Part shown: positions 2,405 through 63,799 of the stretch, piece by piece
Layout: each line of letters starts with the position of its first letter
Position numbering within the stretch: the first letter of the stretch is position 1
Assembly (NCBI RefSeq): GCF_004010195.1
Contig: NC_057756.1
Span: forward strand, 4,247,603 to 4,311,602
Source of the DNA: Chiloscyllium plagiosum
Taxonomy: Eukaryota
Reading direction: 5' to 3'
Length of the DNA stretch: 64,000 nt
The notes under the pieces: model-generated
Database searches by the model: none
Told to the model about the DNA's origin: nothing
What the model saw: the letters and a program-made list of their open reading frames with translations, nothing else
Position numbers and translations under genes: made by a program

Positions 2405-2431
2405 GAGAACAGGTGAAATCAAAAGAAGATG
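2405..2431 (+). CDS. 27-nt phase 1-1 micro-exon of putative coiled-coil repeat protein, (G)EQVKSKED
   Basis: ggacttctgcag|GAGAACAGGTGAAATCAAAAGAAGATG|gtaaat; 27 nt, open in phase 1, ends in G like the other exons; aligns with GKQLEQKVK and GEKLEAQKK. Confidence 0.65.
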
Positions 2432-3904
2432 GTAAATATTTTTTAAGTCATATCAGAATAATTTTAAAGTGTCAATTTTAGCAATTTTCAGAGCGTAAAA
2501 TCTTGTGTCTATCATGCCAGCAATATGTGTGTTAGTTTTACTTTGTGTTTCATAGTTTTTGCTACTGCACGCATGGTTGCATTTTCATGCAGCTCATGGA
2601 AATAATGAGGTAAGATACAGCCTAGGAGACCAGCCTAAGTAGCCATCATTTGGAAGCCCCATCATTTGCATTTTCGCTTCTTTTTAAGTATAAAGCAAAC
2701 TTTCCATGATTCAAGATTAACCCAGTGCTTTCACGGCATCCCTTGTTTGTTCCAGTAGTTCTGCTTTAAGAGAGGCAAATTGTCTTTTAATCCACATATA
2801 ACTTTGGGTAGGATCCAGTACTGGGTATTTCCCTTTTCATATACTAAATGCATCACTGTGACAGTTTTAGAAAAAAAAACAAAAAAAAAATAAAATTTAA
2901 AATAATTATCTCAGTTGTGGCATAAATTGACAATTGTTAATAAGGCCATAAGTTGATTCATGTTATTACAGAATTGTTTCCTGTTGCTGTTGAGGAAGAT
3001 TTAATTTGCTTCTTCAATATTCTGACGGTCGCGGGAGAAGTGGATTCTTGTGAATGTGGAAATGAAAGTAGAATCTGGATAATGACTAACGTAGTGGATT
3101 GTGCATTTTTTTTAAAAGTCTGAAAATTTTTAAAAAGAACCTCAAAATTCTACAAAGTGAATTCCCACATTTAGAAAGGACTCAGCCGAAGCAAAACGAA
3201 GTGAAAGCATAACTTAGTTTTAATTTTGAAAGCTGAATTGACGGCTCTCTATCTGAATGGACACAGGAGCCGATGCATAACAGATACATTTTCGAGTAAA
3301 TTAAACGAGAAATGGCCTCATCTGTTTGTCAATGCTGAGATGCATTTAACAGTGGACAAATGGTAAGTTCTGTATTTTAATTGCAAGTTTACAATTGAGC
3401 AGGACGGGCAAAATATTTGGCATATCACTGCGAATGCTGGTGAAAACCACATAGTTATCAGGGGGAAATGAATTCATAGAATTGTGCCTTTTATATTTGG
3501 TGCCGATTCCATTCACCATACTTCACATCAAATAAATAACAGAAGAGAAAATTGAACAGTGACTTCCAAGACAAGGCATTGGGTGCCGCTATTATATTTT
3601 GAAGAGATTGGGAGCTTATATTCTTTTGAGTTCAGCTAAATAAAGATTTAATGCATTCACAAGGTGAATTTTGATTGATAGTTGACTTTGTGGCGTGAAT
3701 TTGAAAAACACAGTGACTATCATGTTATTAAATTGTCAAAAAAAATCTTTAATTTCAGGGGGGTTCTGTTCTTTCAAAGGTAGTATTTATTTGTAGTTTT
3801 CCAGCAGATTATTCAGGAATATCTGTAAATTATCAAATTAAGTATTGAAATCCACCAAAATATTCATTGATTAACCATGCCATTCTTGTCCATGATTTCC
3901 AAAA

Positions 3905-4050
3905 CTGCAGATGTGGGCGGTTAGCACATTAAATAGAGCACGACAGCGATATGGCCGTGTAGGTCTGGGTGATACCTTGTTCAGAGGGCCAGATTGGATA
4001 CAGTGGACCGAATGCCCTACTGCATTACTGTAGGATTCTCTGATTCTATG
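3905..4050 (+). mobile_element. CR1 LINE / SINE-type 3' tail fragment
   Basis: ggaccgaatgccctactgcattactgtaggattctctgattctatg resembles the CR1 3' end with an (attctatg)-type tail. Confidence 0.55.
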
Positions 4051-4188
4051 GTAAGACTATCGTCCAGCCATATGCAGGCTGTGAAGGAACAATATGTCTT
4101 CGATTCTAAGTTGACGCAGTGTGTTAAATGTGATGAACACAAATCAAATGACTGTCTCATTATTATGTTTCAATTTACTTTATGTCAG

Positions 4189-4224
4189 AATTGGCCAAAT
4201 GCAAAGACGAGCTCGAGAAGCTAG
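4189..4224 (+). CDS. 36-nt phase 1-1 micro-exon, ELAKCKDELEKL
   Basis: tttactttatgtcag|AATTGGCCAAATGCAAAGACGAGCTCGAGAAGCTAG|gtgagt; strong donor; peptide homologous to ELAECKKTIKDL at 60597. Confidence 0.8.
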   Translation, partial: NWPNAKTSSRS

Positions 4225-4535
4225 GTGAGTTGAATGTTGAAAACAAAATTCCACATTACTTCATTCAACTTCTACGAACGATTTTTACTTATATGCAGTT
4301 TATTTGAATCAAGCATAACACATTTTATAAATGCATAGTTTGAAGTAAGGCCCATCACAGACTGTGTTTGAAGAAACTCTGTGAACTATAGTATGATGTC
4401 TACGCCTTAAGATCTTCCTTCTGATTTGAGACAATGAATATCAAGTTCGACAGCTTTTGACTTTTCGTGAAAAATAAAATTATCCAACATAATGATGCAT
4501 TTTTACTCCAGCATTAAAAAAATAACGCCCAAACT

Positions 4536-11790: not shown

Positions 11791-11869
11791 ATTAAAAATT
11801 AAGTTAAAGGCGAATATTTTGAAAGCCAAGGCACAGCTATCCATTCTCAGCTGGGTTTCTTGAACGGTT

Positions 11870-20467: not shown

Positions 20468-20494
20468 GAAAGCAGCTGGAACAAAAAGTGAAAG
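20468..20494 (+). CDS. 27-nt phase 1-1 micro-exon, GKQLEQKVK
   Basis: tatttttttcctttcag|GAAAGCAGCTGGAACAAAAAGTGAAAG|gtaatt; strong polypyrimidine tract; continues the heptad register of the 4189 exon. Confidence 0.75.
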
Positions 20495-39012: not shown

Positions 39013-39118
39013 GAAAGGACATTGCTATTTCCTGTTTTAACTTTAGTTAAACTATTGCATCGTTCTCTGAGCGGTGTACGATAACTTATGAAAATAATGG
39101 CATTAGATTTAGGGAAAC

Positions 39119-44517: not shown

Positions 44518-44860
44518 AATCATAGAAGCTTTACAATATGGAAGTAATAAGTTTCGCCCGAGAAGCCCACGTTAAATTTCCAAAGATTAACCAGCGGACC
44601 CATTCCCCAACCATATAACTCTACATTTACCTCTGACTATTGCATCTCATTTAAACATTGCTGAACATTATGTGCAATTTAGCATGGCCAATTTAACTAC
44701 CCTGAATGTCTGCAGATTGTAGGTTGTAACCAAAGAACCTGAAAGAAACATATGCAATATGTGCAAACTCCACGCAGACAGCTGTGCGAAGCTGAAATCA
44801 AACCCGGTTCTGCAGCATTGTGAAACAGCAGTGCCAGTCACTGAGCTACCGTGCCACCCT
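44518..44860 (-). mobile_element. Older HE1-type V-SINE
   Basis: gcaatttagcatggccaatt, gtgcaaactccacgcagacag, ctgagctaccgtgccaccc. Confidence 0.75.
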
Positions 44861-45019
44861 CAACTTTTGACCATTTCAGACTATACAATTCAGCTGAAGA
44901 TGCATATAATTTCTTGAAATCCATCTAATTACATAGGATCACTTAAGTGTTGCGACATATTCTGTTGAGATAATTGTTTCTTACTCATTTATTAAAAATG
45001 AACATTTTTTTCCTTATAG

Positions 45020-45046
45020 AACTGAAATTAGAAAAGAAAGACAAGG
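45020..45046 (+). CDS. 27-nt phase 1-1 micro-exon, ELKLEKKDK
   Basis: tttttttccttatag|AACTGAAATTAGAAAAGAAAGACAAGG|gtgatc; strong acceptor, weaker donor; same length, phase and L-E-x-K pattern. Confidence 0.65.
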
Positions 45047-46601
45047 GTGATCTTTTGCGAATTTATATTCTCTGTGTATTTGCAATAGTACATGTGACAA
45101 TGTTCATCGGAGATATGTTGCACTTTACCAGGCAAACTTTGTACTCTTCAAAGAGCATGAGATAGAGAGTGTGACTGCATGCCATTGAGGGTATAGAAAC
45201 AGCTGTTCTTTGTGTTCAGTGAGAGATGGTGTGGCCACGGCTCATGATTATGGTCAAAAGCTTTTGTACAATAAAACCTTCTTTGAGTTTCTTCCAAATT
45301 TGAGCATTGATTAATATTAACGACAACAAACTGAAAATGCGAATGTGATCCTGTTCACAGCCTCGAGTAGGATGATTACCTCACTGGAGCAGGTGTATGA
45401 ATTTGGGCAAAGGCAAGTCAAACTACAGGAACTGTAGGTCTGATAAGAATGAATAAGAAAGTATCTGTTGTGCGGCCTATGAGCGCGATTGTTCCTGATT
45501 GGGATAAAGGCCAAGAGTAAAATAAGCGGGATATACAGAATGGATCACTTCATGAAACAGGCATCGCCAGACTCTGATGGGAATGTTTCTGAGTCAGAAG
45601 CAGCTGGTGCGAAAACACACAACAGTCGTAACTTGTGCATAAATGTGATCGAACGACAGAGTCTCGATGAGTATAAATCTATCATTATTATTGCAGGACA
45701 GAACCCGGGGTTCTCTCGTTACCCGGGATATGACAGACAGACATTCGCTCATTAAGCAAATGAAAAGCCCTAGATCAACAGCGTAATTGGCCTGTAAGTT
45801 TACAAAAAAAAGGACAAAGAAACTGGAGTCCTTTTAGTGTATTAGTTACTCAGCCATGTCGGCCATACCTCAGAATCCACAAATCAATGTACAGAGGAGT
45901 AAATAATCTTAGCATCGTGATTTAGCAAACTAGGGAATGTAAGTCTATCTGCGAAATTGGATATTTTGGTAAATTCTCTGTGTTAATTGATCAACTTGCT
46001 AAATTGTTGTATGCAAATTTAAGGACATTTGGTTTGAATATTTGAGCGATTGAGATTACGTATGTTTGGGGTTTGGGGTGTGTAGTGATGGTGGCACGCT
46101 TTCAACAGATTGGAAATTTATTCCCAAACTATGACTTTGTCAACAAATGCGTGAATTGGACGCAGAGAACTGACAAGTCATTTTTATTTGATGGTGTTTT
46201 TAATTGCATGAATCAATTCACAGAGTTTTCAAAAAAAAACTCCAAATCGGGGGAGGAACTGAGAGACAGAGAGAGAAAGATAGTGATTGAGGGTTCCTGA
46301 TTCTTGCTGTCACTGAACTGAGTGCAAACTCCATGCCGTCATTTGTAAATGTATTTTTATTAATTGGTGGTTACATGCGGTCTTGTGAAACATATGTTTT
46401 GTTCCCTGTAACTCAAGACCCAGGAATGTTTTGAATTAAGTCTAACATGGTACACCATCGTCCAGCAGACCCCATGGGCATGAGTGGTAAGGAGGATAGG
46501 ATTTATGTGTTTGCACTAATAGGAGGAAGACAGTGTGTGGTGGACACAAGAACCTTCATATCCATTATTGACCTACCACAACTAATAAAGTTGTTAATGA
46601 G

Positions 46602-46692
46602 AAGTTAAAAATCACACAATACCAGGTTATAGTCAAACAGGTTTAATTGGAAGCACACTAGCTTTCGGAGCGATTCTCCTTCATCAGGTGAA
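46602..46692 (-). mobile_element. Short Penelope terminal-repeat insertion, unit A only
   Basis: aaaaatcacacaataccaggttatagtc...gctttcggagcgattctccttcatcaggtg; absent at the paralogous site about 57730. Confidence 0.75.
46659..46687 (-). ncRNA. Minimal type I hammerhead ribozyme motif (Penelope-associated)
   Basis: Reverse complement cac-CTGATGA-a-ggag(aatcg)ctcc-GAAA-gc-TA-gtg: intact core, stem II, cac/gtg stem I, palindromic AGCT in place of stem III. Confidence 0.65.
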
Positions 46693-47509
46693 AGTCTAAG
46701 GGGTTTAATGGACATTGTACTCCTGTGTACTTGAGTAAGACCAATCTCATAGACATCAATAATCTCTTCACACCGATGCGTTTTCATGTGTTCAGAAATA
46801 TTATGGGAAATGATTTAATAGAGAAATGTGACGTCTTTATAGATTGTGATAGGGGTGAAGCAGTCTGGCACTGTCCTGATGACAAACAAAATGCGAGCCT
46901 TTGCGAGCCATAGGGTGCAACAGGTTGTTCAAGGCACATCCGCCACAGGGTGCAACAGGTTTCTGAATCCATACCAGGACATCAGGAGATGCTATAATTA
47001 CTCCTGAAGCACTTGTATGGCAGCGATTAAAAGCGAGCCCGTAGAAAGCTCACTTTGGGAAAAATAAAGTTATTTACTTCGGATATCTAATCTCCCAAGG
47101 CATGAAAGAAAATCACGGAGATAGGAAGACTACTATACAGCAAATGCCAACACCAATGAGAGCCTGTAATGTGAGTAAAGCCTTAGGCTTCTTAAATACT
47201 GCAGGATTTTTTCCCACAGCTTGCCAAATTGGTCGAGCACATACAACAATTAAAAGGGGGGAAGCCTGAGTGTTACTCCATTGTCTTGTGAGCTGGAAAT
47301 AGGTGACTCCAATAAAAACATTGGAAGCGGAGTTAATGTCAGCCTGGGACTGAGATTGCTGGATGCGATTAAGGAATGTCACATTTATTGCAGCAACGAA
47401 CGTGGGGACTTTTACTCAACGATGGCTCGTAGAAATATGTTGAAGGATCACCATGTACAGTTTTGGTAGTAGTAATCAGGTCAGGCAGCATCCAAGGAAC
47501 AGGAGAATC

Positions 47510-47537
47510 GACGTTTCGGGCATAAGCCCTTCTTCAG
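47510..47537 (-). ncRNA. Minimal hammerhead ribozyme motif (duplicated at 49029-49056)
   Basis: Reverse complement CTGAAGA-a-gggc(ttat)gccc-GAAA-cg-TC. Confidence 0.6.
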
Positions 47538-47838
47538 CTCTGATTAGATTAGATTAGATTAGATTACTTAGATTACTTACAGGGAATTGAACCCGGGTCT
47601 CTGGCGCTGTGAGGCAGCAGTGCTAACCACTGCATCTGCAGACCTCACTTTCTCCTAGTCGTAATCAGGACCTATGAGTTCTCTGGACTGGAGGAATGGG
47701 GTGAGGGGAGGCTGTTCACACAGATGGCAGAGTTAATGGCCCTTATGCAGCCCTGCACAGAGGCGATGAGGAAGAGAATTCATATTTACACTGATAGCAG
47801 ATCTGTATTGGGATTGTCCGTGATTACATGACGTTTTG

Positions 47839-48470
47839 CCCCTTATCAAATTCGGCATCTAACCTATGTCTCCTTACAAACTGCAACACTCCTCCACACT
47901 ATCCACCTCTCCACCAATCTTCGTGCCATCAGCAAACTCGCTAACACACCCTTCCAATTTTTCATTCAAGTCATTTATAGAGATCACAAAGAGCAGAGAT
48001 CCCAGTCAGATCCCTGCGGAACAACGCTGATCACCGAGCTCCAGACTGAATAATTTTCATCTTTGAGCACTCTCTATCTTCTATGAGCCAGCCTATTCTG
48101 TATTCAGTCAGCGAACGTTCCCTTTATCTCATGCCTCCTCAATCTCTGAATGAGCCTACCATGGGAAACCTTGTCAAACGTCTTTCAAAAGTTCATGTAC
48201 TCCACATCTAATGCTTTCCATTCATCAAAGTGTTTTGTCAAGTCCTCAAATGATTCACTAAGGCTTGTGAGGCACGTCCTGCACCCCACAAAAGCATGCT
48301 GACAACTTCTATTCAAACTATGGTTTCCAAGTAATTATAAACCCTGTCTGTCAGAAACTACTCCAATACTTTGCCCAACACAGACATAAGACTACTTCAT
48401 CTGTAATTCCCAGAGTTTCACCCAATTACTTTGCACAACTGAGCATTCAAGTTGAATCTATAAACACCTG
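47839..48470 (-). mobile_element. Internal CR1 RT fragment between the 885-bp duplicates
   Basis: catcagcaaact (KFAD on minus), gatccctgcggaac (VPQGS), aaaccttgtcaaacg (FDKV). Confidence 0.8.
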
Positions 48471-51400
48471 GCAACAGGTTTCTGAATCCATACCAGGACA
48501 TCAGGAGATGCTATAATTACTCCTGAAGCACTTGAATGGCAGCGATTAAAAGCAAGCCCGTAGAAAGCTCGCTTTGGGAAAAATAAAGTTATTTACTTCG
48601 GATATCTGATCTCCCAAGGCATGAAAGAAATTCACGGAGATAGGAAGACTACTATACAGCAAATGCCAACACCAATGAGAGCCTGTAATGTGAGTAAAGC
48701 CTTAGGCTTCTTAAATACTGCAGGATTTTTTCCCACAGCTTGCCAAATTGGTCGAGCACATACAACAATTAAAAGGGGGGAAGCCTGAGTGTTACTCCAT
48801 TGTCTTGTGAGCTGGAAATAGGTGACTCCAGTAAAAACATTGGAAGCGGAGTTAATGTCAGCCTGGGACTGAGATTGCTGGATGCGAATAAGGAATGTCA
48901 CATTTATTGCAGCAAAGAACGTGGGGACTTTTACTCAACGATGGCTCGCAGAAATATGTTGAATGATCACCATGCACAGTTTGGGTAGTAGTAATCAGGT
49001 CAGGCAGCATCCAAGGAACAGGAGAATCGACGTTTCGGGCATAAGCCCTTCTTCAGCTCTGATTAGATTAGATTAGATTACTTCGATTACTTACAGGGAA
49101 TTGAACCCGTGTCTCTGGCGCTGTGAGGCAGCAGTGCTTACCACTGCATCTGCAGACCTCACTTTCTCCTAGTCGGAATCAGGACCTATGAGTTGTCTGG
49201 ACTGGAGGAATGGGGTGAGGGGAGGCTGTTCACACAGATGGCAGAGTTAATGGCCCTTATGCAGCCCTGCACGGAGGCGATGAGGAAGAGAATTCATATT
49301 TATACTGATAGCAGATCTGTATTGGGATTGTCCGTGATTACATGACGTTTTGAGAAGAACGGGAGCTTGTTGGCACAAGAGGCCACCGTTTCAATCATGG
49401 GCAGATAATACAGATCCTACTGGAATCCAGTGAGCTCCCATTGGAAGCCGTCGTATTGAAGGTCAAGGCTCACCAGAGGGAACCAGGCAAACAGAATCCT
49501 GAATGAGACAGAAGTCAAACTTTCTTTGTCTGCCACTACCACCGAAGATGGCCACAACATAAGTAATGCCAATTACCCCTTGATACCCCTGAGGGTGAAC
49601 GTGCCAGGTGGAAAGTGCAGGGGGACATGTATCTGCAGATTGAAAGGTATCTGCAGATTGAATGACAAGATTATGGTCCTGCTTGCATGCAACATACTCT
49701 TATGCATTGAAACCATGGCGTTTCACACGTGCGCCAGGATTCCATGATAACCATTACGAGGAAGAAATGATGGTGTCAGGGCATATGCACAGATATAGCT
49801 CGATTCTGTCACTGCTATGTATCATATGCAAAGACAGGCCAGTTAAAATTAGAATGGGGCACTACCCGTGTACCCACAGGGCCCTGGGAACATAAACAGA
49901 TAGTAGTCTTCCCCAGTCCAATAGGGCATGTGTTGCCTCGTGTTGCCTCCCCCTGTTCAGCTAATACCGTTGCAAGGATTCTAGTTGAGGATCCCAGATT
50001 GAGTTTAACCAGGAAACCCATTTCACTGGAAGAGTAATAAATACCCATATGTTGGATGACGGGCAGTAAACAGAAATCCCACATTAACTACCATCCACAA
50101 AGTTCCACAATGGTGGAGCATATGAACAGCATCTTTTAAGCCTCCTTTCATAAAGCAATGCAGGTCTCTTGCAAACGATGGAATGAGGTCCGACCTGCGA
50201 AACTCATATGACTCAGGTCGACCACAAGCCGATCAGCTGACTTGACCCAGTATGAGCTAATCAAAGGCAGGGCAGTGCAACTCCCGAGTGCAATATCATG
50301 GGGTCCTGGATGCGGCCCTCTGTATGATAGAATATGTCAGAAATACGTTTGCATTTACGTGAGAGGGCAGAGGGTCTTGAAACAATTGGTCCAACAGAAG
50401 TAATATGTGCGCACTGACTGAGGGTCCTCCCCCTCTGCTTTATTTTCAGACTGACTGCTCTCGGAGCCTGCTGACGTCCTTTGTGAATGCGTGTTTGTTG
50501 CGTTATTGAGTGTAAACCAGGAGTGTGGGTTGTTGCATGTGGGTAGTATCACCTTTGGACCAGTGTATAACTCTATTCGGTAAGCTTCAGACTGATATTG
50601 TTCATTTCCACACCAGTCCTTTGCCTAGTAGCCGTTTGGTGGAGTATCAACGGAATTGTGCTGGCCACGTGTTAAATTATTTTCAGAATCAACGTTCAAA
50701 AAAACTCCTACGAATGATTATTGTAACGTTTGAACTCGATGCTTGCATTCAGGCAGACTGAGGCCAGTGGTCACCATGGTTGAATTCACAGCAAAAGATT
50801 GCGGAGTTCCTGCCCTTGAGCAAGTCTGATTTGAGCCATCCTTGCCTCATTGATAAAGGCTGCTCTTTGTGTAATGGAACTGTACCGGATGAAGTAATCA
50901 TTATTCTGTTAAGGTAGACAAACGTATGTTTAACTGAAGTAGGAACAATTGGCGATTTGAGATTGAGAAACATGCCATGACAAAGAAGGCAAAAGTTTTG
51001 AAATGGTTATTTTAATACAATGTCTCAAAACCGAATTTTTGAATATGGTTTAATTTGCATAGGGTACGTGGAATGCCTTGAATGAACCATAACATAAGTT
51101 TAAGATATGCGTGTAAACTTGCAGAAAGAATACACAAGAGATGGATTGAAATAGCAATTGAAGTTTTCAAACATTTTCAGTTAGCAGGTAGTTTAGGTGG
51201 AAGTGCTGGACTGATAGCTATCTCTTAGTGCTATTTGTGCCCTTGTCTTTACCTGGTGAACAGGTCACCACCCGAGGCATCGGGACTCTACGTAGAGAGG
51301 TATGTGTATCTCAGACATCTTTTGGTAGGATCATATGGAAGTCAAGAATGTGTGACAGCCTTGGAATACCGATGTAAGTGTGCAAAGGTGATTGTTAGCT

Positions 51401-54120
51401 CAGAGATAATGGACTTGGGTGAAAGCTGTATTTTTCTTTCACTGAAAAATGAGCCTTAGATATGTTCACCTACTTGACAATTAGGTCAGCGTGACACGAG
51501 AAGACGCAATACTATATTTTAAACAATAAACCATTGATACATGGCATTTATAGGGTGGAAACAACAATGATACTTCTGTTGCTTTACTGATACTTCGAGC
51601 CCTTGATTATTAGTTAGAGGCACAGTTTGGCACTATGTTGTTCCTGGTCCCGAATGCTGCACTTACATTCTGTACTCTTTGAACGTTATGATGGGCCAAG
51701 CTGTTCACATACGCCTGGAGGCTGAAAAGTTCCGGCAGGAAGGGAAACTGTTTCATGATTCTAACCCTCGGGATGGCTAGGATGGCTCCTCAGCGAATCT
51801 TGGGTCTCGTACCTTTTCCATGCTTTCATCATGCTCATTACAATTGTTATATTAGTTGCGTTCTTATGGCTCTTCTTAACTGATGTTTTGAAGTTCTGAC
51901 TGCGAGAATTATGCAGGGTGCTAGCAACCGCGTTGAGTCGCCGGGGGTCAGCCCATTGTCCCCTACTGATAATTACTGTGTGTAGGTGGTCTGTTCGACA
52001 TGCTCCCGCATGTCTCGGAGTACAAGGCGGGGTCTGAATATGGAAAATCAACGGTTAAAAATCAAATGCTTTCAGACCACGTATGTGACGAAGTGGATAT
52101 CGTAGGGTGTAGGGATTGCGTCTGCAAGTCATCGAGACTATAAAGATAATTGTACCTTTGTTCACTGACAGACAGAGTGGTCGCGGCTCGTGGTTAGGGT
52201 AATGGAAGCAATGCTACCTCTCCCAAAATCATTTGTTTAATAAACTACAATTTTACTTGCTTCTATACTTTCGATTTTCGATTAATTTAACTTCCACAAA
52301 TGTTAAATATTAATATTTTAAATTGGAGAAGGGTGACAAACCTGTTGATGTTAAGTCACCTCAAGTGAAATTCAGGAAATACACTGCAACAGTGAACAAA
52401 CGTAAATAATTAAAAGCAAATGCAAAGACTTCTGAGCAGGTCAGTTTCTGACATTATGTAAGCAAACATCATAAGAATATAATTGCTTCCGAATTAAGCA
52501 GTAATGGTCCCGTTCAACATTAAATGTCAAAATACTTCTAGTGTAATTGGTGCTACACATTGTGAACAGTTTCATCCAAGGGTAGGCTTCTTGCTACATT
52601 GACGTATGACTGTAGCTGGTATGTGGCAATTTTAACACTTGCCACCCCAAATGAAATGTACTCAAGCACGAGATTGCTGCTGGCAATTATGCAAAAGTTC
52701 GCTTGTAAAATGCGTATTAAGCCATAGGAAGCATTTAAGAATGTTGAAGCCTCTTAGACTTATATTGGTGAGTACAGTAAGCCATAAGGTGGCAGTTTCA
52801 AAATTTGGACAAATATTCTGCGAGGCAGATAGCCTTTGGGCGTACATTAAACTGGAACTTTGTATTTATATCATAATTTTCGGTTCCCTCGTTACCATCT
52901 GTTCAGAGGAGGCCATGTAATTCACATGCCACGTATGTGACTAGATACTATGGTCTTGACGTGAGGGTGAGAGAACATCCCAGAAGAATATAACAAGAAC
53001 TGATAAAATTGGATACTTGGTGACCATTCCCTCAGTGTTGAACTGATATGGCCCCATTGCGTAAAACTGATTAACTAGAGAGGGACAAAGAAAGAGCTAC
53101 CTCGATAAAGACCAAACGTTGCTCAGATCATCAGTGCTGAGAATGCAATCTTTCAATTGCATGGGTGGTACCTGGTCCTCGCATGGTAACCATTAGTTGT
53201 ACATTAAAGGATTGTGCTAAAGATTTAACATTCTGAAAGATAAAATAATTAAGGCAAGAACCAGGAATTCTCCTCAGAATGAGCAGGATTTTAGCCTATT
53301 GTCCCCTTTATGTTTTAGTATGAATTGTCTGCAGAACATGCATTGAATTAAGAATTGAGTCCAGCTATGTTTCTCGTCTCATAAATACAGTACCAGAGTA
53401 AAACACATTTATGTTGCAACTTGGTTTGGATGAATAAAAAAGTAAAGAAGTCGAATTTTCATCTTTTACCTTTAACTTTAGAAACTTGAAAATATTTTCT
53501 TCATTCCATTGTTTGATTAGGAACTGATCAAGATCAGGAAAACATGTCAGAAAAGTAACAGACTGAAAATTGTGTTCACTAGATAATGTGATGAACAATT
53601 TTCATTGAAGTAAGCAGGCATTATTAAGGTTTAATTAAATGAAAGCGATCTAATGTTAATTATGAATGTCAAAGCATTGTTCAGGATGAATGGGTCAAAA
53701 CTGCCAACTGATTTTCCCACGATAGAATGCAAAACAAGGATCATGATTTCAAAAAGATGATCGAACATTACGTTTAATATGTGAAAACGTTTGTTCATCA
53801 ATATGTTTGCATTAGGACTGACGGTGTTCACACAGAAAGCAGAAAATCTTTGTTGCAATGCTTGCATATAGAGTTCAGACTTTGGGAACATGATTTACAT
53901 TTTTGTGATAATTACCGAATATTGCAGGAATGGTAGAAAATTAGCTTGATGTATTTCATTAACAGTTTCTTCCTGAACATCGAATTTGAATAGATTGCGA
54001 GCTCATTAACTCTCGCAAGCTGTCTGATCGTCTGACCTTATATTATGTTATCGAATGTTTCTCAGCTTGAAGAATCAGTTTATTAATAAGCAGCGCAAAA
54101 CTTCTTATCTTGCCTTTCAG

Positions 54121-54156
54121 AGCTAGCCGAATCCGAGAAAATAATTAAAGATTTGG
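54121..54156 (+). CDS. 36-nt phase 1-1 micro-exon, ELAESEKIIKDL
   Basis: cttcttatcttgcctttcag|AGCTAGCCGAATCCGAGAAAATAATTAAAGATTTGG|gtgagt. Confidence 0.8.
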
Positions 54157-54653
54157 GTGAGTGTACTTGAATTTTGATGACATTAATGTTGTTCACCTTG
54201 AAGCATAGTATCCAATCATTGAATACACACAGTGTCTCTAATCAGTTATGCATTTTTGTTTCAGGAAGAAATAAATTGTATTATATCATCCAACACACAT
54301 TCATCAGCACAACTTCTACTGTGTCTCAAATAGAACTCACGTCCAAATATACGTTAAACTCATGCACAATGCATTCACACTCTTTGTGTCCTAAGGATGT
54401 TTATGTTGCAGATGAACATTAGAAATAATTGTCTCCAAAAACAATTCCAAAGTGACCAGTTGAAACACTGTAAGAACGATTTTGACCATCTGTTTGCAAC
54501 TGTCTATGTAAAATTCGCATTAAATTTTTCATTTTAGAAATGCAGGATGTAGTAGTAATCGAATGCAACATAGTCGATCAATTGATACATGTTGATCGTT
54601 GTTACTGCAATGATACAGACATGTATGCTCCAAGATTGTGACAATAAATCTGA

Positions 54654-54927
54654 GATGGATTGTTCCAAAGGGAATGCACAAACTTCGTACCCTGGTCGAG
54701 AAATTGCTACCCTGTCTAAACAAAAATAATCATTCCTGATTTAGATTTTCAGAATAAAAAGCGGGTGATTATGTGAAAAGCACCAAAGAAGATGGATTGT
54801 TCCAAAGGGAATGCACAAACTTCATACCCTGGTCGAGAAATTGCTACCCTGTCGAAACAAAAATAATCATTCCTGATTTAGATTTTCAGAATAAAAAGCG
54901 GGTGATTATGTGAAAAGCACCAAAGAA
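54654..54927. repeat. 137-bp tandem duplication (2 copies), unit A only
   Basis: gatggattgttccaaaggg...gcaccaaagaa at 54654 and 54791; single copy at about 61130-61265. Confidence 0.9.
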
Positions 54928-55602
54928 TAAAAGTATTCCAACTGAATGAGGCGTAAACTCATGCGTTTCATTTTCTTCTCTTTCCTATGATTATGGATTT
55001 TCATTGTAGAAAATGTTTGAAAGTTAAAACTGTGACGTTGTAATATCGCTAAGATAATTACTTTGTCCTTCCGAGGAATGAAGTCCCATTAAATTTCCTT
55101 GCATCTGTTACCAACGTTTCTCAATTTGTTCCTTAATCTGTTCATTCTTATACGTTCGTGAAATTTACGTTATCCAATGATTTCACAAAATTGTGGAGAA
55201 TTCAGATACATGTAACAATTTGCTTCTTTCAAACCAAGTATCTTCACTTTTTCTATGATTGTATTGATTGCAATTATTAGAGTGACCGTCGAGCACTAGG
55301 GATGGCTAAACAAATGGGGTTTTCATTGCTGTTTTCTTTGGATCTGGTAATCGGTATTCATTTGAATTTTCTCTTGTCCCTTATTAAGAATTTCCATTAC
55401 TTAAGTGTATAGTTAATAATACAAGGATGATGAACATGCATATAATGCCCTGTCTAATCAATTCTGCTAAGTGAGGAACATCAATATACGAAGTATCTCA
55501 ATCAAGGGATGGAAGCAATAACAATGAATTAATCAAAAATGTAATCAAATAAAAACGTAGAGTCTGTCCATGTATTTGCAATCCGTTGATGCACAACTGA
55601 AC

Positions 55603-56102
55603 NNNNNNNNNNNNNNNNNNNNNNNNNNNNNNNNNNNNNNNNNNNNNNNNNNNNNNNNNNNNNNNNNNNNNNNNNNNNNNNNNNNNNNNNNNNNNNNNNN
55701 NNNNNNNNNNNNNNNNNNNNNNNNNNNNNNNNNNNNNNNNNNNNNNNNNNNNNNNNNNNNNNNNNNNNNNNNNNNNNNNNNNNNNNNNNNNNNNNNNNNN
55801 NNNNNNNNNNNNNNNNNNNNNNNNNNNNNNNNNNNNNNNNNNNNNNNNNNNNNNNNNNNNNNNNNNNNNNNNNNNNNNNNNNNNNNNNNNNNNNNNNNNN
55901 NNNNNNNNNNNNNNNNNNNNNNNNNNNNNNNNNNNNNNNNNNNNNNNNNNNNNNNNNNNNNNNNNNNNNNNNNNNNNNNNNNNNNNNNNNNNNNNNNNNN
56001 NNNNNNNNNNNNNNNNNNNNNNNNNNNNNNNNNNNNNNNNNNNNNNNNNNNNNNNNNNNNNNNNNNNNNNNNNNNNNNNNNNNNNNNNNNNNNNNNNNNN
56101 NN
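55603..56102. other. Assembly gap (500 N)
   Basis: Run of N. Confidence 1.
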
Positions 56103-56125
56103 TCTGTCTTTATTTACAATAGTTC

Positions 56126-58580
56126 ATGTGGCAATGTTGATCGGAGATATGTTACAAATTACCAGGCATGAAATTAATGCGGAACATGAAGAGTTAAAAT
56201 AAATGCTTGCAAACTTTGTAACTAACATAGTGCATGTGAAAGAGAGTGGTGACTGTGTCTACACGCCATTGAGCGTATAAAAACACTGTGCCTTTTGTTC
56301 AGTGAGAGATAGTGTGGCCACGGCTAATGATTCGGGTCAAAAGTCATGCTGCATTTTCCAAAAGCGTTTGTATAATGAAACCTACTTTGAATTTCTTCTA
56401 AATTTGAGTAACGATTAAGGTTAACTACAGCAAAGTAAAAATACGAACGTGGTCCTGTTCACAAGCCCGAGTAGGATGGACACCGCTCTGGAGCAGGTGC
56501 AGAACTTTGGGCAAAGGCAAGTCTAACTACACGAACAGTACATCTGGTAAGATTGAATAAGAAAGTGCCTGTTTTGTGGCCTCTGAAGGTCATTGTTCCT
56601 GCCTGGGATGAAGGCCTAGAGTAAAATAAGCAGGATATGCAGAATGGATCACTCCATCAAACAGGCATCGCCAGACTCTGATGGGAATGTTTCTGAGTCA
56701 GAAGCGGCTGGTGGAAAAACACACAGCAGTAATAACTTGGGGATAAATGTGACCAAACGACAGAGGGTCGACGAGTATAAATCTATCATTATTATGGCAG
56801 AACAGAACATGAATGGGGAACCCGGGGTTTTCTCGTTACCCGGGATATGACAGGCAGACATTAACTCATTAAGCAGATGAAAAGCCCTAGATAAACCACG
56901 AAATTGACCTGTAAGTTTAAAAAAATAACGGACAAAGAAACTGGTGTCCTTTTAGTGTATTAGGTAGCCAGCCAAATCGGCCATACTTCAGAATCCACAA
57001 AGCGATGGATAGAAGAGTAAATAATCCTAGCATCACAATTTAGAAAAATAGGGATTAAAAGCCTATATGTGAAATTGGGTATTTTGGGAAATTCTCTGTG
57101 TTAATTGGTCAATTTGCTAAATTGTTATATACGAATTTAAGGACGTTTGGCTTGGATGTTTTTACGATTGAGATTGCGTGTGTTTTGGGTTTGGGGTGTG
57201 CGGTGGAGGGGGCACACTTTCAATAGAGTGGAAATTGATTCCCAAAATATGACTTTGTCCACGAATTGGAGAACTCGACGCAGAGAACTGACAAGGCGTT
57301 TCTATTTTATGGTTTTTAGTTGCATGAAACAATTCGCAGAGATTTTTTTCAAAAATAACTCCCTTTGGGGAAAGGAACTGATAGAGAAATGGAGTGAGTG
57401 AGGTAGAGAGACAGGTTCCTGTTTCTTGCTCTCATTGAACTAAGTGGAAACTTTTTGTTGTCAGTTGTGAATGTATTTTTGTTCAATGGTGGTTGCATGC
57501 GTTCTTGTGAAACATTTGTTTTGTTCCCTGAAACTCGAGACGTAGGAATGTTTTGAATTAGGTCTGATATGCTGCACTGACGTCCAGCAGACCCCACGGA
57601 ATGAGTGATAAGGAGGATAGGATTTACTTGTTTGCACTAATAGGGCGCAGATATTGTAACACGCTGGTGAACACAAGAGCCTTCATATCCATGACTGGCC
57701 TATCACAACTAAGGAAATTGTTGATGTGAATGGGTTAAATTGACATTGGACTCCTGTGTACTTGAGTAAGACCGATCTCATAGACATCAATAATCTGTTC
57801 ACACCGATGTAATTTCATGTGTGTTGAAACATTGAAGGACCTATTATGGGAAGCGACTTAATATAGGAATGTGACGACTTTATAGATTGTGGTAGGGGTG
57901 AAACAATACGGTTCTGTCCTGGTGGCAAAAAAAAGGAAGCCTTTGAAAGCCACTTGGGTGTTGTTCAAGCCACATCCACTACAGGGCCCAAATGGCTTCT
58001 GAATCCATACCGGGACAGCAGGAGATGACTAGGATGGCTACTCAGCGAATCTTGGGGCTCGTGCATTTTCCATGTTTTCATCATGCTCCTTATTATTGTT
58101 GAACTAGTTGAGTTTTTATGGCTATTCTCAACTGATGTGTGAAGGTTTGACTGCGAGAATTGCGCAGGGTGCTTGCCTCCACGTTGTGTCGCCGGGGGGA
58201 GGGGGGTTAACCGATTGTCCCCCTACTGATAATTACTGTATGTAGGTGGTCTATTCGCCATGCTCCCGCGTGTCTCGGAGCACAAGGCAGGGTCTGAATA
58301 TGGAAAATCAGCAGTTAAAAATCAAACAATTTTAGACCATGTAATTGATGAAGTGGATTTCGTAGGGCGTAGGGATTGTGACTGCACGTCATCGAGACTA
58401 TGAAAATATCTGTGCCTTTGTTCAGTGACAGACAGAGTTTTCACGGCTCGTGGTTAGGATGATGAAAATAATGCTGCCTCTCCCAGCAAATCTTTTGTTA
58501 AATAACATGCACTTCTACTTTCTTCTAAATTTTATGTTCGATAAATTTTAATTTCAACAAACGTGAAATGTTAATATTGT
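56126..58580 (+). mobile_element. Duplicated copy of the ERV with most of pol and env deleted
   Basis: Homologous to about 45093-46990 joined directly to about 51775-52310 at about 58027 (caggagatgactaggatggct). Confidence 0.8.
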
Positions 58581-59623
58581 ACATTGGAGAAGCGTGAGAG
58601 TCGTGTTGGTGGTAATTCACCTCAAGTGAATTTCAGGACCTTGACTGCAGCAGTGAACACACGTAAACGACTTAAAAACGAATGCAAAACACTTCTGAGC
58701 AGGTCAGATTCTGACATTATGTAAGCAAACATCATAAACAATTATGTGCTGCCCAATGGTGCTCCGCAAATACGAACAGTTTCATCCAAGGAGAAGCTTG
58801 TTGCTAAATTGATGTATGACTGTAGCTGGTATGTGGCAATTTTAACACTTGCCACCCCTAACTGAAATAAACGCAAGCACGAGATTGCTGCTGGACAATG
58901 ATGTAAAAGGCCGCTTGTAAAATGTGTATTAAGCCATAGGAAGCATCGAAGATTGATGAAGCCTCTTACACTTATAATGGCGAGTACAGTAAGCCATAAG
59001 GTGGCAGTTTCAAAATTTGGACAAATGTTCTGCGAGGAAGATAGCCTTTGTACGTACATTAATCTGGAACTTTGCATTTTTATCATAAGATGTGGTTCCC
59101 TCATCACCATCTGTTCAGAGGAGGCCTAGTAATTTACATGCAATGTATATGACTGGACGTTATGGTCTCGATGAGACGGTGAGAGAACAGTCCAGAAGAA
59201 TAAAGGATGAATTGATAGAGTTGGATACTTGGTGGCCATTCCCTCAGTGAAGAATTGATATGGCCCCGTAGAGTAATTCTGATCAACTGGAGAGGGACAA
59301 AGAAAGAGCTACCACGAGACAGACCAAACGTTGCTTAGATCATCAGTGCTGAGGATGCAATCTGTCTAAATTTCAATTGCACGAGTGATACCTGGTCCTA
59401 GCATGGTAGCCGTTAGTAGTACTTAAAAGGATTGTGCTAAAAATTTAATATTGCGAAAGATAGAATAATTCAGGCAAGAATCAGGAATTCTCCTCAGATT
59501 GAGCAGGATTTTAGATAGTATTAGCCCATATGCCCCCTGTATGTTTTAGTATGATTTGTCTTCAGAACTTGCATTGAATTAACAATTCAGTCTAGCTAGG
59601 TTTCCTGTCTCACAAAGACAGTA

Positions 59624-59855
59624 GGAGAAAGTGAGGTCTGCAGATGCTCGAGATCAGAGCTGGAAATGTGTTGCTGGAAAAGCGCAGCAGGTCAGGCAGC
59701 ATCCAGGGAACAGGAGAGTCGACGTTTCGGGAAAATCAGCATTTGATTCTCCTGTTCCCTGGATTCCTGAAGAAGGGTTTATGCCCGAAACGTCGATTCT
59801 CCTGTTCCCTGGATGCTGCCTGACCTGCTGCGCTTTTCCAGCAACACATTTCCAG
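59624..59855. mobile_element. Fold-back Penelope-derived insertion with 15-bp target-site duplication, unit B only
   Basis: Inverted arms 59657-59731 and 59784-59858; ctcacaaagacagta at 59609-59623 and 59856-59870; empty site at about 53378-53392. Confidence 0.9.
59767..59794 (+). ncRNA. Minimal hammerhead ribozyme motif
   Basis: CTGAAGA-a-gggt(ttat)gccc-GAAA-cg-TC. Confidence 0.55.
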
Positions 59856-60596
59856 CTCACAAAGACAGTACCAGAGTAAAGCACATTTATGTTGCAAATT
59901 GGTTTGCATGAATAAAAAAACGAAGAAGTCGACTTTTCCTATTTTAGCTTAAACTTTGAAAACTTGAAAATATTTTCTTTATTCCACTATTTGATTAGGA
60001 ACTGCTCAAGATCAGGAAAACATGTCAAAAAAGTAAAAGACTGAAATTTGTGTTCACTAGACAATACGATGAGCAATTTTCATTGAAGAAAACAGGCATT
60101 ATTAAAGTTTTATTAAATGAAAGAGATCTAATGTTAACTATGAATGTCAAAACATTATTCAGGATGAATGAGCCAATGTGGACAACTGATTGTCAATGAT
60201 AAATTGCAGAACAAGAACCAAAAAGATGATCGAACATTACATTTGAGATGCGAAAACGTTTATTCATCAACACGTTTGCATTAGGACTACCGGTGTTCAC
60301 ATAGAAAGGTACACAGACTCTGCTGCAATGCTTGCATATAGAGATCATACTTTGGGAACATAAAATGATTTAGATTTTTGCGATGATTACTGAATATTGC
60401 AGTAACGGTAGAAAATGACCTTGATGTATTTCATTAACCAGTTTCTTCCTGAAAATCGAATTTGAATAAATTGCTAACTCATTAACTCTCGCAAGCTGTT
60501 TGGTCCTCTGAGCTTATGTTATGTTATCGAATGTTTCTCAGCTTGAAGAATAAGTTTAATAATAACCAATGCAAACTTTCATATCTTGCCTTTCAG

Positions 60597-60632
60597 AGCT
60601 AGCCGAATGCAAGAAAACAATTAAAGACTTGG
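60597..60632 (+). CDS. 36-nt phase 1-1 micro-exon, ELAECKKTIKDL (paralogue of 54121 exon)
   Basis: catatcttgcctttcag|AGCTAGCCGAATGCAAGAAAACAATTAAAGACTTGG|gtcagt; splice sites and frame kept in both duplicated copies. Confidence 0.78.
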
Positions 60633-61333
60633 GTCAGTGTACTTGAATTTTGATGATTTTACTGTTGTTCAGCTTGAAACGTAGTATCCAATCTTTGAAT
60701 AAACTCAGTGTATCTAATCAGTTATGCATTTTTGTTTCAGATATTAAGAAATGCTATTATATCATCCAACACACATTCATTAGCACAACTTCTACTGTGT
60801 CTCAAATAAAACTCACGTCCAAATATACATTAAACTCATGTTCGATGCATTCACACTCATTATGTACTGATTATGTTTATATTGCGGATCAACATTAGAA
60901 ATAACTGACTCAAAACACAATTCCAAAGTGACAAGATGAAGCACTGTAAGACAATTATGACCATCTGTGTGCAACTGTCTATGTAAAATTCGTGTTAAAG
61001 TTTCCAATTTAGAAATGCAGGATGTAGTAGTATCTGCATGCAAGATCGTCGATCAATTGATTCATGTTGGATCGTTGTTACTGCAATGATATCAGACATG
61101 TTTGCTCCAAGATTGAGATCATAAATGTGAGATGATTTGTTCTGAAGTGAATGTCCAATTTCGAACCTGGTCAAGAAATTGCTACGCTGTCTAAACAAAA
61201 ATAATTACTACTGATTTCGATGTTCAAAATAAAAAGCCAGTGATTATGAGAAAAGCAACAAAGAATGAAAGTATTCCAACTGAATGAGACGTTACCTCAT
61301 GAGTTTCATTTTCCTCTCTTTCCTATGATTATG

Positions 61334-61546
61334 AAGGGTGGTACATGTATGGAATGAGCTACCAGAAGATGTGGTGGAGGCTGGGACAATTGCAAAATTT
61401 AAGAGGCATTTGGATGAGTACATAAGTAGAAAGGCTTTTGAGGAATATGGGCCGGGTGCTGGCAGTGGGAATAGATTGGGTCGGCATTGACTGTTTGGAC
61501 CGTAAGGTCTGTTTCCATGCTGTTCATCTATCTGACTCTATGACTC
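61334..61546 (+). mobile_element. CR1 3' end insertion, unit B only
   Basis: tggaatgagctaccagaagatgtggtggaggctgggacaattg...ctgactctatgactc; absent at about 54995. Confidence 0.85.
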
Positions 61547-62249
61547 AAAATGTTTGAAAATTAAAACTGTGATGTTGTAATATCATTAAGATAATTACTT
61601 TGCCCTTCCGAGAAATGAAGTCACATTACATTTCCTTTATCTGTTACCAACTTTTCTCAATTAGTTTTTTAATCTATTCATTCTTATACATTCTTGAAAT
61701 CTACGTTATCCAATGATTTCACAACATTCTGGAGAATTCAGACACATGTCACAATTTGCTGCTTTCAAACAAAGTTTATTCACTTTTTCTATAATCATAT
61801 TGATTGTAATTATTAGAGTGACCGCTGAGCACTAGGGATGGTTAAACAAATAGTTTTCAGGCCAATTCGCTTTCGATCTGGTAATCTGTAATCATTTGAT
61901 TTTTTTCTTACCCCCTTATTAATTATTTCTATTACTTCAGTGTATAGTTAATAATACAACAATGAATGTGCAGATAATGTCCTGTCTAATCTATTCCTAT
62001 AAGTGAGGAACATCAATGTACGTAGTATGTCAATTAAGAGCTGGAAGCAATAACAATGCATTGATCATAAATGCAATCAAATGTATACGTAGAGTCATTC
62101 CATCCATTTGCAATCAGATGATGCACAACTGAACTGTATGGAACACAAATGTGACAATTTGTAATACGTTATTCTGGTATTAAGTAATCTGAACCAAGTA
62201 GTACGCATTATGTAAAGAATGTAATATTCAATACATAAAGATGACATAG

Positions 62250-63470
62250 TTAAAAATCACACAACACTAGGTTACAGTCCAACAGGTTTAATTGGAAGCA
62301 CGCTAGCTTTCGGAGCATCGCCCCTTCATCAGGTGGTAGTGGAGGGCTCAATCCTAACACACAGAATTTACAGCAAAAATTTACAGTGTGATATAACTGA
62401 AATTATACATTGAAAAATTGATTGTCTATTGAGCTTTTCATCTGTTAGAATACCGTGATAGCTTCACTCCTTCCATGTGTAAATCACAAAACCTTTTTTT
62501 TTAAAAAGTTGCATCCTCGGGTTAGCTGTTATCAATGGGTGATAGCTCGACAATATGTTGAAGGTGTTAGCCCCCTGTGTTCTCTGTCTATGCCATGACG
62601 CCTTGGACCATTCTCCAAGGTGGACTTCTGGACAGGCAGCAGAGAAAAGTGGCCGAGCAGAGGCTGATAGCTAAGTTCAGTATCCAAATGCAGGGCCTCA
62701 ACCGGGTCCTTGGGTTCATGTTAAATTTCAGGTGACCACCATTGTACTATGCACACACACAGATACTCCTACACACATACTCTCTCTCACACACAGGCAC
62801 TCCTATAAACACGGACGCACACACAGAAACTCACACACACCCTTACAGGCATACACATTCCCGCACTCACACATGCACCCCCTCCCTGATTTAAGACGCT
62901 CTGCACTCACCCCACACACACATACACTTTATCACACTCACAACCCCCAACCCAGGCAGACACAGACAAAGACCCACATGGACACATATATTTTCTGGGG
63001 TGAATTTGTACTTGCAGGGTGACATTGTACTTTGCTCAAAAACTGCATGCATTCATGTAGAACTCTGAGCTCAAAAACTGCATAAATTCATGTAAAACTC
63101 CGTTACCTCATTTTTTAGATTACAATCAATCTAAACATCATGGCATAGACAGAAAACACAGGGGACCAACACCTTCAACATATTGTCTAGCTATCACCCA
63201 TTGTTAACAGCTAAACCGAGAATGCAACATTTTAAAAAAAGATTTTGTGATTTACACATGAAAGAAGTGAAACTATCACAGTATTCGAACAGATGAAAAG
63301 CTTAACAGACAATCAATTTTCCAATGTATAATTTCAGTTACATCACACTATACATTTTTGCTATAAATCCTGTGTGTTAGGATTGAGCCATCTACTACCA
63401 CCTGATGAAAGAGCAACACTCCGAAAGCTAGTGTGCTTCCAATTAAACCTGTTGGATCTTAACCTGGTGT
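62250..63470 (+). mobile_element. 5'-truncated Penelope-like element with inverted terminal repeat
   Basis: Inverted repeats about 62264-62598 and 63138-63470; endonuclease C-terminus TILQGGLLDRQQRKVAEQRLIAKF...GLNRVLGFM (62607-62735); CA-rich UTR; hammerhead motifs at 62304-62332 (-) and 63402-63430 (+). Confidence 0.88.
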
Positions 63471-63772
63471 CCACTAGGAAAACACCCCAAATGCATGCAT
63501 GGTCAACGTAATAATGTCTGTTCAATGCATGTATGGACGATAATAGGATATCGACATAAATGTGTGCCCTATGCATGTTAAATGTCGAAGAGTTCTCGCC
63601 ACGTTTCTCCAAATTCTGGATAAGTGTTTCAAGTAAAATATCGGGAGTGCCAAAATACTATTGTTATTTTCGCATTGGTTCTGACGTTGTATGTTAAGAA
63701 GCTCAGCAATTTAGCGCTTGCATCTGTCAGTGTGATTTACCTTGCAAAGTCATATCTTTTGCTTCTTAAAAG

Positions 63773-63799
63773 GTGAGAAGTTGGAGGCACAGAAGAAAG
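63773..63799 (+). CDS. 27-nt phase 1-1 micro-exon, GEKLEAQKK
   Basis: atcttttgcttcttaaaag|GTGAGAAGTTGGAGGCACAGAAGAAAG|gtaagt; consensus donor; continues the heptad register of the 60597 exon. Confidence 0.78.

Follow-up and report, generated by a model that had tools for sequence, protein, structure and literature searches.

A probable half-megabase gene of 27- and 36-nt micro-exons, encoding a coiled coil most likely followed by a B30.2 domain, in the shark Chiloscyllium plagiosum

A long series of very small exons encoding a repetitive coiled coil was found in the genome of the shark Chiloscyllium plagiosum (assembly GCF_004010195.1; 3.56 Gb in 101,977 contigs). Seven of these exons lie in the window of 64,000 nucleotides (nt) analysed here, which covers positions 4247603-4311602 (+ strand) of the 10.7-Mb contig NC_057756.1, referred to below as C47. 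They are probably internal exons of one giant + strand gene, the product of which would be a long coiled-coil rod, most likely with a B30.2 domain at its end. The original prediction, made from the letters of the window alone, had described seven segments of 27 or 36 nt, flanked by AG and GT, open in phase 1 and ending in G, as an internal part of a large and probably poorly annotated gene with an expandable modular coiled coil. All seven peptides occur once, on the + strand and where they had been placed, and every detail checked proved correct.

Micro-Exons of the Window and of the Wider Array

In each of the seven exons (Table 1), AG stands before and GT after the segment, the last base is G, and the first two bases complete a codon (phase 1) of which the final G of the previous exon is the first base. 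The exons of the locus were grouped by peptide: class A has 36 nt and reads E-I/L-x-x-L-K-x-x-L-x-x-x, class B has 36 nt and an ELxxC motif within and downstream of the window but 27 nt farther upstream, and class C has 27 nt and reads xEKLxxKxK. The two size classes seen in the window are thus two peptide families, as had been proposed. The order of sizes inside the window is 27, 36, 27, 27, 36, 36 and 27; from 60597 to 158538 (window coordinates), 36- and 27-nt exons alternate almost strictly, and upstream of the window the unit resembles 36+27+27 nt. Intron length varies from 0.4 kb to over 24 kb. Indirect signs of repeats were found in the window, namely very high repeat depth in many bins and weak matches to reverse transcriptase and long interspersed nuclear element (LINE)-like sequences.

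The window and 280 kb of its flanks were scanned (344 kb; window coordinates -149999 to +194000) for 27- and 36-nt segments that lie between AG and GT, have an open phase-1 frame and end in G. About 50 + strand exons were catalogued from -135559 to +172402, and, together with the pattern matches described below, the array extends at least from -135559 to +258515, which supports the view of the seven exons as an internal part of a large gene with an expandable modular coiled coil.

Since the segments are short, AT-rich and rich in Lys and Glu codons, they might be regarded as chance openings in repeat-rich intron DNA, but this explanation has a negligible probability and is refuted by the controls of strand, splice signal and pattern and by the occurrence of the same unit of 12+9 residues in predicted proteins of other species. 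The 344 kb contain 2386 segments of 27 or 36 nt between AG and GT on the + strand and 2178 on the - strand. Among those that are open in phase 1 and end in G, a coiled-coil-like amino-acid content, judged without any filter for splice quality, was found in 47/352 on the + strand and 4/219 on the - strand (Fisher p=5e-7). Because splice signals played no part in this selection, their quality is evidence that the segments are real exons: compared with the background, the 47 selected segments were enriched in YAG acceptors (40/47, 85%, vs 1101/2339, 47%), in a purine at donor position +3 (40/47 vs 1148/2339), in A at donor position +4 (32/47 vs 691/2339) and in pyrimidines in the tract before the exon (mean 0.64 vs 0.47, p=5e-14). 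A position-specific scoring matrix (PSSM) seeded from coordinates was applied to both strands and gave 39 matches on the + strand of the first 264 kb (25 seeds and 14 new) and none among 371 - strand candidates; over 294 kb, the numbers were 40 and 0, and no - strand candidate scored 5 or more. In addition, 36-nt exons with hydrophobic residues at positions 2, 5 and 9 were found 16 times on the + strand and never on the - strand.

Genome-wide searches were made with patterns in IUPAC code that combine a class-C exon with its splice sites, each accompanied by a control pattern. The strict pattern gave 11 matches and its control none; 10 of the 11 lie on C47 and four in the window locus. When one mismatch was allowed, 56 matches (control, 32) were obtained, 29 of them on C47, which represents 0.3% of the genome; one is a + strand site at C47:4506114 (about 258515 in window coordinates), reading GEKLKAKEK. 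A second pattern (48 matches, control 43; 22 on C47) added + strand sites at C47:4444788 and C47:4452722 (about 197189 and 205123). A third (33 matches, control 12) found 22 sites on C47, three on contig C37 and four small-contig copies of exon 45020, so that 29/33 fall in family loci or their copies. A pattern for Cys-type exons (584 matches, control 305) was not used. The matches thus cluster at a few loci, with 0 to 12 control matches for the two most specific patterns, and it is very probable that the seven segments are genuine exons, belonging to a shark gene with a length of about half a megabase.

Further arrays were recognized from the pattern matches at C47:528172-970963 (+), C47:1343250-1845854 (-) and 20.06-22.32 Mb of C37 (-). 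Class-C-like sites were also seen on the + strand far upstream of the window, at C47:3187252 and C47:3974703 (about -273 kb); this means that the gene has a length of about 600 kb or that more members of the family lie between 1.85 and 4.1 Mb.

The Encoded Coiled Coil

The repeated module consists of a 36-nt exon (E-L-x-x-C-x-x-x-L-x-x-L) and a 27-nt exon (x-E-K-L-x-x-K-x-K), which together encode three heptads (21 residues); the core positions are L2, C5, L9, L12, L16 and K19. Twelve units of 36+27 nt confirm the 3-4 spacing proposed for this pair: positions 2, 5, 9, 12 and 16 are hydrophobic in 92-100% of them, position 19 is Lys in 11/12, position 21 is Lys in 12/12 and position 5 is Cys in 7/12. 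The conceptual product of 25 ordered exons has 264 residues (22% K, 19% E and 16% L), and its 3.5-residue hydrophobic periodicity, the heptad signal for which coiled-coil prediction on the spliced product had been suggested, was equalled in 0/2000 shuffles. The predicted sequence is that of a canonical heptad coiled coil in which every 21 residues include one conserved core Lys.

All exons are of phase 1-1 and end in G, and therefore any subset of them splices in frame. Exons of 27 nt contribute 9 residues (7+2) and those of 36 nt contribute 12 (7+5), so that the heptad register is preserved by whole 36+27 pairs only.

The B30.2 Exon and Its Link to the Array

A genome-wide SPRY search, for which the best 150 of 293 candidates were considered, found one on C47, at 4577660-4577983 on the + strand. 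The B30.2 exon at this site (window coordinates 329897-330414) lies on the strand of the array, 266 kb beyond the last exon of the window. Its open reading frame (ORF; L032:8486-9016) has 177 open codons ended by a stop, most of which form the coding exon, and matches Pfam SPRY with 65.8 bits (cut-off 26.3). The acceptor ttttgcag/TC places the exon in phase 1, and together with the final G of a micro-exon the joined codon reads Val. In the 8.5 kb upstream of the exon, ORFs of at least 60 codons and micro-exon candidates were catalogued. Relatives in PDB include TRIM58, TRIM21, pyrin, TRIM11 and BTN3A1 (E 1e-19 to 1e-15). A look for B30.2 exons in the flanks, proposed at the outset, thus produced one of matching strand and phase.

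When the genome was searched with this exon, four paralogues stood out (Table 1), and matches beyond these four and the exon itself had E values of 2e-20 or weaker. In each case, the paralogue lies past a class-C match of the same strand, and the order of an array and then a B30.2 exon is repeated at four to five loci. Mainly because of this recurrence, the window array is considered to end in the B30.2 exon; from the three pattern matches beyond the scanned region, the shared strand and phase and the analogy with the paralogues, we infer that the array and the exon belong to one gene.

Alternatively, the array may be a real gene that stops before the B30.2 domain, for example with a coiled-coil tail like that of chicken BG genes, the B30.2 exon at about +330 kb belonging to a neighbouring gene. 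About 71 kb, mostly unread, separates the last mapped micro-exon (+258515) from the B30.2 exon, and BG genes end without B30.2 in the cited parts of PMC4046983. This alternative is considered unlikely, since the exon agrees with the array in strand and phase, the order of array and B30.2 exon is repeated at paralogous loci, and predicted proteins of relatives in other species combine both parts.

Other terminal domains were also sought. A regular 21-residue periodicity with Cys at a core position would suit a stalk, either of a CD23-like type II C-type lectin receptor or of another extracellular receptor, and phase 1-1 exons are typical of extracellular modules. The 84 + strand ORFs between +154 and +194 kb contained no lectin or other Pfam domain, and none of 35 genome-wide Lectin_C matches lies on C47, leaving the suggested CD23/C-type lectin relationship unsupported. 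The terminal domain that was found, B30.2, has a cytoplasmic location in TRIM and butyrophilin proteins according to PMC4046983 and PMC12841164, and the stalk interpretation is thus very improbable. A V-set search in which 150 of 1319 candidates were scored gave a sole C47 match at 10.2 Mb, 5.6 Mb away, and none near the arrays. The immune-type receptor considered possible in the original prediction is accordingly no more than a guess. RING and B-box domains were detected by Pfam neither in four relatives from other species nor in 86 ORFs upstream of the window, a result that rests mainly on the relatives.

Most of the best 150 SPRY matches (of 293) lie on C37, at about 9 Mb and 17-34 Mb. C37 carries a very large expansion of B30.2 genes, and its micro-exon arrays lie inside this expansion.

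Relatives in Other Cartilaginous Fishes

A comparison of the B30.2 exon with 1.84 billion representative proteins returned 2488 matches, and the closest single-domain ones came from cartilaginous fishes (Table 1). The B30.2 domains of the family relatives are 35-59% identical to that of the window gene. The expectation of poor annotation fits these results: no close protein match was obtained for the exon, and the nearest carpet-shark entry is a stand-alone protein of 178 residues. A search with the same exon for longer proteins found only TRIMs, at 35% identity or less.

The most informative relative is Callorhinchus milii XP_042192744.1, in which an N-terminal hydrophobic stretch and a basic cluster precede a coiled coil of about 1500 residues with repeated ELxxC motifs and a C-terminal B30.2 domain; among the relatives, the hydrophobic stretch was seen in this model only. 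In four relatives, Pfam recognized SPRY or PRY only and no immunoglobulin (Ig) domain. A 21-residue PSSM built from 12 units of the window locus, and scored against the composition of each target protein, gave five matches of at least 8 bits in the Callorhinchus protein (maximum 19.1; reached in 0/500 shuffles), an example of the 12+9 unit being ELKNCQQLLKQK followed by EKKLQDTKK. The maximum was 22.1 bits in the Narcine protein and 10.4 bits in that of Leucoraja (0/200 shuffles each), and six unrelated multi-domain B30.2 proteins had no match of 8 bits or more. Isoforms differ by blocks of 6 and 9 residues in Narcine and of 7 and 9 residues in Callorhinchus, which is what cassette exons of 18 and 27 nt, and of 21 and 27 nt, respectively, would give.

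A tblastn comparison of the relatives with the 344 kb gave no matches except the B30.2 exon and LINE-like stretches resembling the N-terminal part of the Scyliorhinus model. The N-terminal 120 residues of that RefSeq model (XP_038668997) match dispersed repeats of the locus with 44-52% identity (-5902 to -6069, -49944 to -50108, -65356 to -65520 and -40024 to -39860), and this part of the model is probably transposon-derived. A search with residues 380-900 of the Callorhinchus coiled coil found only the two versions of that gene. As a lead only, long SPRY/PRY proteins of chordates form clusters in a protein atlas, under names such as 'nucleoprotein TPR isoform X51'.

Table 1. Exons and duplication of the window, B30.2 paralogues in the genome and B30.2 relatives in other species. 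Positions are window coordinates unless a contig is given; identities refer to the B30.2 exon of the window locus.
Feature	Position	Strand	Peptide	Details
27-nt phase 1-1 micro-exon, class C	2405..2431	+	(G)EQVKSKED	ctgcag before, final G, gtaaat after
36-nt phase 1-1 micro-exon, class B	4189..4224	+	ELAKCKDELEKL	gtcag before, final G, gtgagt after; PSSM 26.9
27-nt micro-exon, class C	20468..20494	+	GKQLEQKVK	tttcag before, final G, gtaatt after
27-nt micro-exon, class C (EL-K-L subtype)	45020..45046	+	ELKLEKKDK	
36-nt micro-exon, class B	54121..54156	+	ELAESEKIIKDL	first copy of duplicated unit
36-nt micro-exon, class B	60597..60632	+	ELAECKKTIKDL	second copy of duplicated unit; donor GTCAGT
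27-nt micro-exon, class C	63773..63799	+	GEKLEAQKK	acceptor aaaag
Segmental duplication	51772-55602 vs 58024-62134 (span 51772..62134)	+		83-86% identical; one 36-nt exon per copy; interrupted by gap 55603-56102
B30.2 paralogue	C47:994536-995036	+		59% identity, E 4e-66; 24 kb past last same-strand class-C match
B30.2 paralogue	C47:1296638-1297123	-		42% identity; 46 kb past last same-strand class-C match
B30.2 paralogue	C37:22229878	-		40% identity; 93 kb past last same-strand class-C match
B30.2 paralogue	C37:20720070	-		33% identity; 74 kb past a same-strand class-C match
B30.2 relative, cluster with Leucoraja erinacea XP_055510696 ('TRIM69-like')				46% identity
B30.2 relative, Scyliorhinus XP_038668997 ('TRIM39-like')				41% identity
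B30.2 relative, Callorhinchus milii XP_042192744.1 ('nuclear-pore anchor-like')				1697 residues; 40% identity
B30.2 relative, Callorhinchus 'TRIM58' isoforms				39% identity
B30.2 relative, Narcine bancroftii XP_069775384-90 ('zinc-binding protein A33-like' X1-X5)				37% identity
B30.2 relative, Chiloscyllium punctatum chiPu_0007878 ('hypothetical protein')				178 residues, B30.2 exon alone; 59% identity (word-based search)

Recent Duplication and Copies of the Exons

Expansion of the array, another element of the original prediction, is borne out by an 85%-identical duplication that includes exons 54121 and 60597, by near-identical copies on unplaced contigs and by the paralogous arrays elsewhere in the genome. 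The duplicated unit is about 6.3 kb long, and a third copy, 96-97% identical to the second, was found on contig C95580. The three exon copies encode ELAESEKIIKDL, ELAECKKTIKDL and ELAEYKKTINDL, and each has an open frame with AG and GT intact. They differ at the same base of codon 5 (window positions 54133 and 60609; L003 about 1632), which is TCC, TGC or TAC and encodes Ser, Cys or Tyr at a core 'd' position of the heptad.

Near-identical copies of exons 45020, 60597 and 63773 were observed on the unplaced contigs C95580, C65761, C92478, C41018 and C57012. For exon 45020, identical 33-nt copies are present on C41018, C57012 (two) and C95580, and the near-identical copies of exon 63773 on C65761 and C92478 have a TAG acceptor. 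These copies point to haplotype or copy-number variation, or to a collapsed assembly around the gap of N at 55603-56102.

Outside the window, two identical 34-nt class-C sites (ELKLREKNK) were seen at C47:4420001 and C47:4444788 (about 172402 and 197189), 24.8 kb apart. They flank long assembly gaps at 175922-181119 and 184347-186333 and represent a duplication of very recent date or an artefact of the assembly. At about 188000-194000, within a presumed intron, lies a long tandem, satellite-like array, which is open in several frames and repeats ...SLSLVPLHRCALS.... A weak KIN17 winged-helix-like ORF was noticed at 170782-170997 (20.3 bits, under the cut-off); a KIN17 gene at this site was rejected, the real KIN17 exons being on contig C23, and the match is due to chance or to an old fragment.

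Evidence Against a Single Working Gene

Several results weigh against the proposal of one functional gene with a terminal B30.2 domain. The first concern its course through the window: if all seven exons were joined, the heptad register would be broken at two junctions, one of type 27-27 (20468 to 45020) and one of type 36-36 (54121 to 60597), although the assembly gap at the latter (55603-56102) may hide a 27-nt exon. At the 5' end, Pfam gave no domain in 86 + strand ORFs between -150 and -120 kb, where the first mapped exons lie, and the Callorhinchus N-terminus (233 residues) had no match in the shark genome (best E 7.65). At the 3' end, with the region from +194 to +321 kb mostly unread, the link of the array to the B30.2 exon depends on the three pattern matches, the shared strand and phase and the analogy with the paralogues. 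With regard to the relatives, a 21-column HMMER profile compared with 168 proteins found nothing significant, the relatives included, so that the unit was detected by PSSM and shuffles only. Codon conservation across the exons decreases from position 2 to 1 to 3, with position 3 close to intron, a pattern that is partly circular because the exons were chosen by composition. Finally, the duplicated exons differ at 4/36 nt where their flanks differ by about 14-15%, and at 3/36 nt where the flanks differ by 3-4%, mostly by replacements. As these young exon copies have diverged at least as much as their flanks, no sign of purifying selection is seen there.

The last observation raises the possibility that the locus is a decaying or silent paralogue, that is, a pseudogene array in which the exons are still recognizable but no longer spliced into a working mRNA. 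Replacement changes at the pace of introns, the weak GTCAGT donor of one copy and the irregular module order within the window would be consistent with such decay. Opposed to it are the extended splice signals preserved at about 50 exons over at least 300 kb, the uninterrupted 177-codon frame of the B30.2 exon, whose ...ISIV end agrees with the relatives, and the open frames and intact AG and GT of all three exon copies, which make a decayed locus rather improbable. RNA reads for window positions 44001-64000 came from guessed RNA contigs and from two single-cell 3' RNA sets, of which about 2% and 6% were sampled, and were compared alongside a DNA set; they gave repeat-derived cover only, and in one single-cell set no cover. 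RNA depth was zero at exons 54121 and 60597, which occupy unique bins, and exon-exon joints were absent throughout, which in this small and partly guessed sample is no test either way.

Proposed Architecture and Significance

The gene proposed here would span at least 466 kb (C47:4,112,043-4,578,019), and perhaps about 600 kb. Its rod would be encoded by about 60 or more micro-exons, with a unit of 36+27 nt in and downstream of the window and of 36+27+27 nt upstream, and one terminal exon, situated 266 kb past the window, would encode the PRY-SPRY region. The splicing, the oligomeric state and the function of the window gene are inferred: by analogy with TRIM proteins, pyrin and butyrophilins, the rod would oligomerise and space the molecule and the B30.2 head would bind a ligand. 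The length of the rod would alter by duplication or loss of modules and probably also by cassette splicing.

A more far-reaching and doubtful possibility is that such genes form a distinct, undescribed class. These would be half-megabase genes of cartilaginous fishes in which a 36+27 module has been multiplied dozens of times to give adjustable rods with a B30.2 sensor, and they might be the missing link between the micro-exons of BG and butyrophilin genes and the TRIM architecture. In such a class, an N-terminal hydrophobic segment would perhaps anchor the rod to a membrane, duplication and cassette splicing may tune rod length, given that the phase is the same in all exons and that the register survives in module pairs only, and the residue at position 5 (S, C or Y) may tune pairing.

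These findings may be of interest in several respects. Ordinary gene finders miss giant genes built almost wholly of 27- and 36-nt exons, and in the sister species Chiloscyllium punctatum the last exon alone has been annotated. The locus would be a clean natural case of a coiled coil in which exon structure follows the structural repeat and evolutionary changes of length can proceed module by module. The TRIM, butyrophilin and pyrin innate-immune sensors would be joined by an unnamed coiled-coil-B30.2 family, which in this shark occupies at least five loci that reach about 0.5 Mb, and the origin of the heptad micro-exons of BG and butyrophilin genes becomes testable in the oldest jawed vertebrates.

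Comparison with Known Systems

No description of such a gene was found in the literature searches made. Among known systems, the stalk of CD23/FCER2 has 21-residue repeats, one per 63-nt exon. In the window gene, the unit is split over two exons instead, and there is no C-type lectin domain on the contig.

In chicken BG genes, 13-38 tiny exons, each starting with a split codon, encode the coiled coil, their number differs from gene to gene and from allele to allele, and hydrophobic a/d residues occupy fixed codons of every exon, according to the cited sections of PMC5938342 and PMC4046983. Many phase-1 heptad micro-exons in variable number are thus common to BG genes and the window gene. However, BG exons have, in the same sections, 21 nt (sometimes 18 or 24) and one heptad each, and Ig-V and transmembrane (TM) exons but no B30.2 are described there, whereas the window gene has a 36+27-nt unit of three heptads and a B30.2 exon after the array, with no Ig-V found.

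Butyrophilins contain heptads followed by B30.2, as outlined in parts of PMC4046983 and PMC12841164. The terminal B30.2 is shared with the window gene, and the BTN3A1, BTN2A2, BTNL3 and BTNL8 chains match it at E of about 1e-15. BTN and BTNL proteins differ in having few heptads and in their IgV, IgC and TM regions, none of which was found in the window gene or its relatives. Phase-1 heptad micro-exons, a trait of BG and butyrophilin genes, and a terminal B30.2 exon, a trait of butyrophilins, were both found at the locus, and a membrane anchor was not; the proposed BG/butyrophilin analogy is strengthened by the terminal exon being on the same strand and in phase 1.

TRIM proteins and pyrin likewise have a coiled coil followed by PRY-SPRY, and the best PDB matches (TRIM58, TRIM21, pyrin and TRIM11) are among them; the relatives also carry TRIM-like automatic names. 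They differ in that the relatives of the window gene lack RING and B-box by Pfam, and in that the window rod would be far longer and made of repeated modules. Because no TM, RING or B-box was found, and no Ig-V among the 150 of 1319 V-set candidates scored, the window gene cannot be assigned to the butyrophilin or TRIM families; it resembles BG genes, butyrophilins and TRIM/pyrin.

The closest likeness is to the coiled-coil-B30.2 proteins of cartilaginous fishes, which share the 12+9 unit, the B30.2 domain and SPRY/PRY as the only Pfam domain, although they are automatic models with misleading names and those of the ray and the skate are short (295-378 residues). Both the B30.2 domain and the 12+9 unit of the chondrichthyan family of XP_042192744.1 are present at the locus, and the window gene belongs to this unnamed coiled-coil-B30.2 family of cartilaginous fishes, which has at least five loci in this genome.

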